In this document: one piece after another, positions 50,501 to 53,500 of the stretch
Position numbering within the stretch: the first letter of the stretch is position 1
Layout: each line of letters starts with the position of its first letter
Notes under the pieces: generated by a model
Seen by the model: only the letters and a program-made list of their open reading frames with translations
Told to the model about the DNA's origin: nothing
The model's database searches: none
Position numbers and translations under genes: made by a program
Assembly (NCBI GenBank): GCA_044892525.1
Contig: CM097885.1
Coordinates: 11,472,001 to 11,536,000, forward strand
Length of the DNA stretch: 64,000 nt
Direction of reading: 5' to 3'
DNA from: Schmidtea polychroa
Lineage: Eukaryota

Positions 50501-53500
50501 GAGTCAACATAGTCATAAGGATATATTCCTTTTGCTAAATATGTAGGATATTCTTCTAGAGGAATATTATTTTTTTCCAAGACTTCTCGAGTGATTTTAA
50601 AATCTTCTGGTTTCATTGTTTTAGCTATTCCATCTAGAGACATTTGAAGAAAGTTTAACGAGTCTATAAATTTTAATTTTCCATATTCAACTGATTTATA
50701 TTTTTCCTTTGTAAGTCCTATAACTTTGAAAGAGTTTTTAGCATTTGCTGCTAAATGTTTAATAAATAGATGTATGTCATAACCAAAATGATTATGAAAT
50801 ATAACAGGTACAAATTTAGGAGTATGACAATTAAGATTACAATTTTTATGAGCTGCTCCTCGATAATTATTTTCCTTTTTTAAATGATCATGATCGAGGA
50901 CTTTTATATTCGGAGACTCTTCAAATGGTTGTTTACACATCCAACAGTTGGAAGTGTTTTCATATTCTTGTTGTTGTTGATTAGAAATATTTTGAGGATA
51001 GTTTGTTTTTAATATTTTAAATATTTCATGTTCTAGATCATTTATACTTTTAGTAAAATGATTCAAGACTTCTGTTTCTGAAATTCCTCGAAATGTATAT
51101 TCTCTAGATTCTATGAGTTCAGGATAATTACTTTTAAATAATAGTTTATAAGCAGAAGGTAATTGTTTAGTTTTTTTAACACTAATAAGTTTATTTCTTT
51201 TTCTTAGAAAGGCTTTCATCCTCTCTGGTTTCATCTTCTCTCCTGAGGAGTTCCAGGAATCCATGAGTTTATTTTTTTCTATTATTTTTAAATATTGTTT
51301 AACCAAATCTTGTTTACGATTTATAGATTCAAAGTCCCCATAAAGCACTCCTACTGTTTGTAGTAAATTTGAAAAGCTTTTAAAATACATCTTGGGATTA
51401 TTAGGCATTTTAATTAAAGCTGGATCATCTTTTTCACAAAATCTTGTATGTTTAATCATAGAGTTTTTAGTTGTTGAATAATGAAGACATCTTTTACATG
51501 TTCCTCCTCCACTAGTTGGATTCTCTGGTGATGTAAAAACTTGAAAGTTTTTTATTAAAACATAATGTTGATTATTTTGTTGTTCCAAGATTAAAAGATA
51601 TATCTCCCTAGTGTTATCCTGGGGTTCATTATCTCTAACTTCATAATCTGAAATATAAATTGGAATAATTTCTCTGCTATTAACATGTTTCCCTTTAACA
51701 CGTTCATAAATATTAATTTTAAGATTATTTAAACTTTCAAATTTTGGAATGTCTTCTAGTTTCATTGGATGTTTGAATCCTTTGGGAAATATTAATTCAT
51801 TTTCATATTGTTTGTATTTTGAAACTCTTTGAGGGTTTGATTCTTGAGGGTGTAAATGTGCAAGTATTGACCAGACGAAACATTTGTTATCATTATTCTG
51901 TATGTTTATAACATTTTTAGATTTAAAGGGTGTAGGAATATAAGATTTAGGATTAGATGGTATTCCTCTCCAATAATCAATCACTAAAGTTTGGAAAGAG
52001 TTGAATACTAAGTTTGAATCTCCTAATTCATTTTCAACCTCTTCTTGTTTTGCTTCTACTGCTTGAATTATTTCTTTGATGGTTTTATCAAATCCTTTAG
52101 TTGAAAATAAATATTTAAAGGGTATTCCAATTTCAACATCTAAAGGTGTTGTCTTTTCTTCTGCTCCTCGCCAGTATTTTGCTTTGATTATAATTTTATA
52201 TTTTATAACATTATACCTTGTCGGTTTATAATTTTTTAAAGCTTCAGTGAAAGAATTTTTAATATTTTTTTTATTTTTATTTATATATTCTGCAGGAGTT
52301 ATAGGTCCATTGATTTCTAATTGAAATTCATCTACATGATTAAAATCATCCCAGTTATATTTTTCTCTTTCAACATGATCAGGTTCTCCTTCTGAATGAC
52401 ATTCCTCATCGTCAGAATTTTGTTTTTTATTTTTACATTCTTTTATATGTTCTAAATAATAGAAATTTACTTTTGTTGAAAAGTTACAGTGAGAACATGT
52501 AAATATTTCTCTATTTTTCCCGATACAATTTTCAAAATGTTTATTATATCCAGAATGTAGAAATCTTCCTTTACATTTAGGACAAAGTTTTGAATTTGTA
52601 TCATTAAGATTGTTTTCTTTTAATAAATGAGCTTTCGATTTTAAGTGAGAAATTAATCCAGTTTTATTTTTAAAAACTTTATTACAAATAGTACAATTCA
52701 TTTTTAGAAAAAAATTTTTTATTGGATATCCTGTTTTGATTTTTTATGTTTTTATATTTATTTTCATAATGTGACAGTATAAAAAATAACAAAAATCCAA
52801 ACCTAGATAGCGCAGTGGGCTAGACCGGCACCGTGGTTCAAATGGATAGCGGTTCAAATCCTAACTGTGGTTAGTTTTTTTTCAACATAAAATAATATTA
52901 AAAATTTGAAAATAATAGTGTGGGTATCTTAGATTTATATTTTATTTTATTTATTTTTATTTTATTTATTTTATTTTATTTATTTTATTTTATTTTATTT
53001 TTTAAACTTAAATATGAAAAAAAAATTATTGAAACGGGTGATGGTGGCGAACCGGTAATTATCGCCACCTGTCTTTCGAACACCCCCGGATCGATTCTTA
53101 AATGTGCACATTTATTTCTCAGTTGTTTTCGGACCTCTTTCGAATTCACTTTCGAATTCATTTGTACTTTCGAGCAGCACACTTAAAACGCCGATGAAAT
53201 CGTATTCGAGCGAGAAGCGAATAATAAGGTGTGCTGCTATTATCGGATTGATTCTGATGTATGAGTCTGGCCAGATTGTATATTGGAAGAGATTCGATAA
53301 ACGAAAGAGGTTGATAAATAAAAAAATGATCCGGATCAAAAAAAACTGTTGAGGGGACAGTGAAAAAAAAAAAATACCACTGTCCCCTCAGAGCAGTTTT
53401 ACTATTTTTCATTTATTTTTTAATTTATATAATTTAAAATCAATAATCTGATAAAGATCAAATAGCCCTCTAACTTTTTCATAATGCCATTTTCTTTTCT

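Follow-up and report, generated by a model that had tools for sequence, protein, structure and literature searches.

What is a short tRNA-like unit doing at both ends of a Polinton? The 64,000-nucleotide stretch of DNA analyzed here (contig CM097885.1, positions 11,472,001 to 11,536,000; called the window below) contains a Polinton whose terminal inverted repeats (TIRs) each carry a short unit with the A box, B box and T run of an RNA polymerase III (Pol III) gene. A first-pass annotation, made from the letters of the window, had described this unit, here called U1, and had proposed that it was an analogue of the adenoviral virus-associated (VA) RNAs or a signal for integration at the element ends. 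Its description of U1 was right except for the pairing of the ends; the other units of the same cassette had been overlooked. The cassette has up to four A/B-box units (U1 to U4), which all face outward and never inward. The boxes and the terminator of U1 are under selection, and with moderate confidence we propose that U1 is a working Pol III unit that is kept mainly for recruiting the Pol III machinery to DNA.

A tRNA-type Pol III unit in both inverted repeats

U1 is an 82-bp unit with a predicted RNA of about 75 nt, and it starts 25 bp inside the inner edge of the TIR (Table 1). The left and right copies are 100% identical over 74 nt, in agreement with the first-pass annotation, and the other details of its layout were confirmed as well: an A box at nt 8 and a B box at nt 51, which is tRNA spacing, a T8 run, and the word GGTTCAAAT occurring twice. 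The A-to-B start spacing of 43 is also that of the host tRNA-Cys gene, to which U1 aligns without gaps from the A box through the B box. The 32-bp gap between the boxes falls within the 30-40 bp stated for type-2 Pol III promoters (PMC7279448; this paper and the others cited for background and comparison were available in excerpt). The strict A-to-B pattern, which was adjusted after the units had already been seen, has 4 matches in the window (U1 twice and U4 twice) compared with 0.02 per dinucleotide shuffle. The first GGTTCAAAT belongs to a 16-bp tandem repeat, of which it forms one unit and which expands or contracts in single copies.

The absence of a proper cloverleaf, also claimed earlier, holds for the window and for sister copies: ARAGORN found no tRNA at U1, and Rfam gave no tRNA, VA, vault or Y RNA match. 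The minimum free energy (MFE) of U1 has a z-score of -0.07. The pairing claimed for the ends of the unit is weak by this measure, with a 4-bp AACC/GGTT stem that is mostly kept among copies (392/432 cells).

Selection on the boxes and terminator of U1

Sister loci were taken from the host genome and are referred to by L-numbers. One hundred left ends were drawn from the listed capsid matches, 40 of them chosen for variety, and the 108 U1 copies on these ends formed the set for measuring constraint. A variant was called shared when it was present in two or more copies. None of the 17 consensus box columns has a shared variant, compared with 29 of the 53 other columns (Fisher p=2.8e-5). Singletons number 9 in the 17 box columns and 16 in the 53 others; because they are equally frequent in the boxes, the boxes are not mutation cold spots. 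The common A-box variant, found in 30 copies, is an A/G swap that the consensus permits. Box spacing is 42-44 in 102/108 copies, a T run of at least 7 follows the unit in 103/108, and internal T runs are no longer than 3 in 107/108. U1 therefore has the tRNA-like box spacing of a type-2 Pol III gene, with oligo-T downstream and none inside. The type-2 layout proposed at first is thus borne out, in a unit that is owned by the element and is under selection at its boxes and terminator. Conservation of the boxes in related TIRs, which the first-pass annotation had looked to, holds among the copies; some relatives carry no unit at their ends.

The rest of U1 is looser. Variation affects 6/7 columns in the 5' 7 nt, 9/14 in the 3' part and 11/23 in the middle, and the duplicated B word is constrained (2/9 columns with shared variants). 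Alignment columns are not fully independent; heavy recombination loosens them, with all four gametes seen in 168/351 site pairs. No conserved RNA fold was found among 25 haplotypes, for which the mean z is -0.18 and the alignment fold is weak. The T stem is 40% paired and the D stem 26-50% paired. Two stems persist, a 5-bp stem in the middle (531/539 cells) and the 4-bp closing stem described above, and neither has two-sided changes. U1 therefore lacks the cloverleaf stems of a tRNA, and it also lacks the length (~160 nt) and long stems of VA RNAs and of the Epstein-Barr virus-encoded RNAs (EBERs). Its two B boxes presumably give it some resemblance to vault RNA; there is no Rfam match to that family and the closing stem has 4 bp. 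With z about 0, U1 does not fold stably and is poorly described as a VA RNA, and the analogy first drawn was not upheld for this unit, which has neither a long stem nor a conserved fold.

Copy number and distribution

The window's U1 A-box 21-mer has 459 exact copies in the host genome and a degenerate U1 pattern has 3023 matches. Exact-pattern counts are 3048 for U2 and 2620 for U4, so that U4 copies are not above U1 copies, and a first look gave ~3100-3200 capsid candidates. Three partly overlapping samples of U1 loci were placed. All 30 of the best U1 matches, the first 20 further places among the matches listed (20/20) and the first 30 among the places listed for the degenerate pattern (30/30) lie inside this Polinton family. 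The first-pass annotation had asked whether the unit might be a common host short interspersed nuclear element (SINE). All sampled loci are inside the Polinton, and U1 as a tRNA-derived SINE was rejected: there are no free copies in the sampled loci, no target-site duplication (TSD) of its own and no tail.

No more distant Polinton families emerged from capsid searches. A 53%-identical capsid query gave 98 matches at a uniform 54-57%, and a 72%-identical query gave 97 matches at a uniform 73-75% and no further Polinton family. The 40 capsids measured are all 89-97% identical to the window capsid. Viral contigs contained neither a capsid relative nor the U1 pattern, and phage records gave no match. 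Metagenome contigs gave 4 loci, none with an element end or a credible unit, which is uninformative.

U4, a candidate structured RNA gene

The best candidate for a structured RNA in the cassette is U4, which starts ~240 bp outward of U1 with a box spacing of 43 and an A box that agrees with the consensus at 10/11 positions. Its predicted fold is strong (-136 kcal/mol, z -11.4); in 7 sister copies, each set against 15 shuffles, z lies between -4.8 and -12.8. As RNA, the outward strand folds better than the other strand (-136 vs -111), and as DNA the two are near equal (-67 vs -65). The longest internal T run is at most 4 in 76/77 copies, and A runs reach 7-27. In an alignment of 25 copies, 99.1% of cells are paired, with the structure derived from the same alignment on which it was tested. 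Seven pairs of the 25-bp hairpin vary on one side only, through G-U, so that pairing is kept, and the number of cells with two-sided changes is above the shuffles (0/500).

U4 has the internal boxes, the long stable multibranch fold and the oligo-T end of VA RNAs and EBERs, with no match to the VA and EBER families of Rfam at E up to 10 or 5. Measured against the plan of murine gammaherpesvirus 68's tRNA-miRNA-encoded RNAs (TMERs), U4 has its boxes spaced as in a tRNA and carries a 25-bp hairpin, and its head is not a cloverleaf. Judged by sequence and predicted fold, U4 appears to be a much better VA- or TMER-like candidate than U1, and it is likely to be the main RNA product of the cassette.

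Contigs from all 4 sequencing runs compared (3 studies, 2 organisms; that the runs are RNA was only guessed) cover the U4 body. Two of the runs are from the second organism, with contigs in which ~10-15% of the letters differ, and one of these reaches the U4 A-box region. Summed contig depth is highest over U4 in all four runs. In run X1 it is 4467-7797 over U4, 328 over U1 and 242-1115 over the capsid gene, in a measure that cannot rank the parts. U2 and U3 have little or no contig cover in three runs. Given that the RNA nature of the runs is a guess and that contig depth gives no ranking of the parts, the depth over U4 is a lead and does not prove expression. Elsewhere in the window, no stretch of more than 13 nt is antisense to U1 or U4. 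Words from U4 and U1 were absent from the full-text literature searched apart from one unrelated match, and neither they nor the hairpin words occur in 8 supplementary files of PMC5671611 or 3 of PMC7962491.

U2, U3 and co-occurrence in the cassette

All four units hold their boxes at a spacing of 43-44 on the outward strand. On the 100 left ends, U1 was present in 86 (doubled in 22), U4 in 84, U2 in 45 and U3 in 44, and 13 had none. U1 and U4 were found together across several terminus types. At loci selected by U4, U1 was upstream in 29/30, with the strict pattern in 25 and with visible point changes or deletions in 4.

U2 and U3 are located between the capsid gene and U1 in sister elements. 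In the window copy, a ~290-bp deletion at 40368/40370 took the U3 B box and all of U2 (the same deletion region was compared in L061, L089 and L090). On sequence evidence, U2 is derived from the host tRNA-Cys: the similarity between the boxes has p=0.002, and the Rfam tRNA score reaches 29.0 bits. Its D and T arms pair, and its acceptor and anticodon stems do not. The host tRNA-Cys has a 5' G run that is missing from U2, and in some U2 copies 9 nt are inserted ahead of the A box. In U3 the B box is weaker, and T4 runs occur inside the unit. Of 30 U2 loci, 27 are in Polinton context and the other 3 are one orphan fragment (L121:999-2045; C1 ~12.2-13.3 kb), made of U3 and three tandem U2 with a 243-bp period. 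The orphan is preceded by a different A/B-box unit with a spacing of 44 and lies outside a recognizable Polinton. More diverged matches to the U2 region (82-88%) occur near C1:31.3 and 32.5 kb.

Outside its boxes, U1 showed no similarity to the two tRNAs compared with it, the host tRNA-Cys and initiator tRNA-Met (p 0.7-1.0), and an origin from either is unsupported there. Between-box sequences of U1, U2, U3 and U4 gave a shuffle p>0.05 in 14/16 between-unit comparisons; the exception was one U1 variant against U2 (p 0.03-0.04). In the host, tRNA-Cys is found in a long tandem array (997 matches, 281-bp period, C1:269.25 Mb), as is initiator tRNA-Met (1222 matches, 454-bp period, C1:79.33 Mb).

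The host element and its surroundings

The element in the window has a protein-primed DNA polymerase (PolB, PF03175), an rve integrase, a double jelly-roll capsid protein and a weakly matched packaging ATPase, the gene set of a Polinton. PolB is split over two open reading frames (ORFs) in the window copy; the ATPase is one ORF in a sister copy. Next to the ATPase (43177-44474), neither the window copy nor L114 has an ORF for a mini-TBP; TBP is also a component of TFIIIB. The termini are also those of a Polinton, with long TIRs that start with AGTAGT (~900 bp, 891/901 identical) and a 6-bp TSD in sisters. Among 10 sister elements, 5 have an exact 6-bp TSD, 1 matches at 5/6, 1 is unmatched and 3 could not be resolved. 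The element sits within a Gypsy element; judging from a Gypsy copy that is not interrupted (L277), the right tip of ~10 bp and the TSD were probably lost in a small microhomology deletion after insertion.

Table 1. Features of the Polinton, its Pol III units and the surrounding Gypsy element in the window
Feature	Position	Strand	Remarks
gag-like ORF of the Gypsy retrotransposon hosting the Polinton	38256..39089	+	
Polinton, whole element	39089-53676		
Left TIR	39089..40006	.	begins 5'-AGTAGT
U4, left TIR copy	39373..39745	-	97% identical; A box at 39736
U1, left TIR	39900..39981	-	identical copy; A box from 39974; from sequence comparison
89-aa ORF	39959..40228	-	stop codon in left U1 just beyond A box; no Pfam match
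U3, 5' remnant	40370..40416	-	A box TAGCGGAGTGG from 40409
Double jelly-roll major capsid protein	40473..41759	+	PF21738, E 3.7e-26
rve integrase with PLA2-like domain	41777..43180	+	PF00665; PF08398
Packaging ATPase	43177..43970	-	two ORFs here; Pox_A32 weak, E 0.0013
Further feature of the Polinton	48389..52701	-	
Right TIR	52776..53676	.	without last ~10 bp of sister copies; no TSD
U1, right TIR	52801..52882	+	degenerate tRNA-type Pol III unit; read from sequence, box constraint
U1 A box	52808-52818	+	TAGCGCAGTGG; nt 8
U1 duplicated B-like word, first	52835-52843	+	GGTTCAAAT
U1 B box	52851-52861	+	GGTTCAAATCC; nt 51
U1 T8 terminator run	52875-52882	+	
U4, right TIR	53036..53402	+	candidate ~360-nt Pol III RNA gene; multibranch body, then T runs
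U4 A box	53045-53055	+	TGGCGAACCGG
U4 B box	53088-53098	+	GGATCGATTCT; initiator type
Pre-miRNA-like hairpin in U4	53240..53300	+	25 bp
U4 terminal hairpin	53342-53400	+	
Gypsy pol	54351-57197		

The 89-aa ORF sits between U2 and U1 and is shortened or absent in many sister elements. Its overlap with U1 cannot explain the constraint on U1, since the B box is past the stop codon and the right-TIR copies are without the ORF. The family is a mosaic, in which capsids are 89-97% alike and at least four TIR types occur (L054-L090, L101-L120). PolB genes in the family have only 72-78% DNA identity to the window's PolB, and the element L067/L114 consists of two inverted capsid-side halves.

Possible roles of the cassette and alternative explanations

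If U1 works as we propose, TFIIIC would bind its A box and B box, perhaps together with the duplicated B word, and would load TFIIIB and Pol III, so that a ~75-nt loosely folded RNA ending in oligo-U would be made. The retention of the A box, the exact spacing and the terminator points to real transcription. Occupancy at U1 could then keep the element end, the cassette and U4 accessible against heterochromatin; TFIIIC-bound DNA can serve as a chromatin boundary (PMC3395662). U4 would give a TMER- or VA-like structured RNA that feeds or occupies the host small-RNA machinery. PIWI silencing in planarians has Polintons among its chief targets (PMC8532177), and this silencing would supply the selective pressure if the host is a planarian. 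The host genome, 781 Mb in size with most of it in four large contigs, is rich in AT and has ATT runs, much as a planarian genome would. A wider reading, which we offer only tentatively, is that animal Polintons run their own Pol III noncoding RNA programme: U1 to U3 and U4 would be transcribed from thousands of copies and yield microRNAs (miRNAs) or a decoy against RNA interference (RNAi) or PIWI-interacting RNAs (piRNAs), and the short units would hold the ends open.

Several observations weigh against this account of U1 and U4. The cis role proposed for U1 is an inference, and the strict terminator, the constrained duplicated B word and the two short stems would also fit a functional RNA. 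The constraint was measured in one genome, among elements whose capsids are 89-97% alike (40 measured), and in the U4-selected set one A-box G-to-A change is common to two loci. The 13/100 left ends without a unit (a finding for the ends, as distinct from the interior ~1-7 kb from the capsid start) suggest that some subfamilies can do without the cassette. No unit is seen in a distant relative either (50% capsid identity; a 9.2-kb contig without ends). For U4, the two-sided pairs number 2, which is not above the shuffle count (315/500), and conservation of its A box is biased, the motif having served to pick out the copies (77/87). An internal T4 is conserved in nearly all U4 copies, and host tRNA-Cys genes are followed by only T3-T4 runs. 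A full-length U4 RNA would therefore require read-through.

As an alternative, the U1 RNA itself could act in trans, as a tRNA- or vault-like decoy for La, for proteins that handle tRNA or for those that load small RNAs. A strict terminator at tRNA length with no internal T runs would suit such a decoy, as would the constraint on the duplicated GGTTCAAAT and the two short stems that tolerate G-U. Tandem doubling of U1 in 22/86 left ends is what dosage selection would yield, and the tRNA-like structure of a TMER alone rescues pathogenesis, according to the accessible part of PMC8223928. The 5', 3' and middle parts of U1, however, vary freely, recombine and have no common fold, and this leaves the decoy doubtful, though it deserves to be taken seriously. 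That U1 itself is a VA-RNA analogue, a double-stranded RNA mimic that blocks Dicer or sensors of double-stranded RNA, is very unlikely. In favour of such an RNA are the type-2 promoter layout in an adenovirus-related element and the several tandem units, like VA I/II. Yet the MFE z is about 0, there is no long stem and Rfam has no VA match. The VA target that is known best, PKR, belongs to vertebrates, which also counts against this mimic. The size is wrong as well: U1 is ~75 nt long and VA RNAs are ~160 nt (PMC4378190).

Two further explanations were considered. The units could be captured pseudo-tRNAs or SINE heads that hitchhike neutrally in the element. The clear tRNA-Cys derivation of U2, the orphan U3 and U2 fragment outside a recognizable Polinton, and the subfamilies without the cassette at their ends are all consistent with such capture. 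It is nevertheless unlikely given the box-specific constraint among replicated variants, the lack of any free U1 in the 30, 20 and 30 sampled loci or of a TSD or tail of its own, and the strand-biased avoidance of T runs and strong fold of U4. Alternatively, U1 could be a structural part of the TIR that replication or integration requires at both ends, for example to tether TFIIIC, and it is present in both TIRs of the window's subfamily. In L056, L057, L070 and L080, however, there is one U1 and U4 block, which lies in the interior within a short TIR of a different kind; both ends lack a unit in L055, L064 and L082; and the right end of L061 is without U1. Exact 6-bp TSDs flank five of these elements (L055, L082, L057, L070 and L080), and U1 is ~800 bp from the terminus. 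Since relatives have U1 single and internal, or are without it at both ends, U1 is not a required end or integration signal. The integration signal suggested in the first-pass annotation was not supported, and a structural TIR role is the most improbable of the explanations considered.

Comparison with known systems

Adenoviruses, herpesviruses, some retroviruses and a parvovirus are known to have Pol III noncoding RNAs. For animal Polintons, no description of Pol III units was found in the literature, in a search that most subscription journals and repeat-database entries lie outside, and Pol III and non-coding terms have zero occurrences in PMC8502044 and PMC10748475. For Polinton-like viruses, only intact tRNAs were found reported in the literature searched. 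If our proposal is true, a Pol III cassette under selection in a family with ~3,000 members would point to virus-like counter-defence by integrated Polintons. It would help to explain the origins of VA RNAs, as their counterpart in transposon-like relatives of adenoviruses, and it would mean that thousands of TFIIIC sites have been added to host chromatin.

Each of the known systems shares part of this plan. The tRNA genes of Polinton-like and MELD viruses (PMC12220804; PMC8502044) are likewise tRNA-type genes inside the element, and U2 is derived from a host tRNA. According to the excerpts of both papers, those tRNAs are intact, are called by ARAGORN or Rfam and are thought to serve translation, whereas in the cassette units the acceptor or anticodon stems are broken and only the promoter and terminator are retained (with, in U2, the D and T arms as well). 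Boundaries made by tRNA genes and by extra TFIIIC (ETC) sites (PMC3395662) are like U1 in that A/B-box DNA may act through TFIIIC and not through RNA. ETC sites, as described there, have TFIIIC without Pol III; U1 differs from them by its A box, exact spacing and terminator. Heads of tRNA-derived SINEs have a similar tRNA-derived 5' half with A and B boxes. Unlike them, U1 has no tail, no TSD of its own and no dispersed copies, and it holds a fixed position in the Polinton.

VA RNA I/II and EBER1/2 (PMC4378190) share the internal A/B promoter, the oligo-T end and the presence of several units with the cassette, and a Polinton is a linear double-stranded DNA, virus-like and adenovirus-related carrier. 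In comparison with these RNAs, U1 has half their length and no structure, U4 has about twice their length, and neither has an Rfam match. The TMERs (PMC8223928; PMC4378190), in the parts of these papers available, are a virus-borne cluster of tRNA-derived type-2 units, as the cassette appears to be. U4 resembles a TMER in its order of an A/B-box head, then hairpins, one of them the size of a pre-miRNA, then a T run. U1 is unlike a TMER in having no hairpins behind it and in being hosted by an integrated Polinton. The heads of TMERs take on a tRNA fold and RNase Z cuts them, in contrast to U1 and the head of U4, which fail ARAGORN and the Rfam tRNA model. By this comparison, U4 would be similar to a TMER, VA RNA or EBER, and the cassette as a whole would work most like the TMER cluster of gammaherpesvirus 68.

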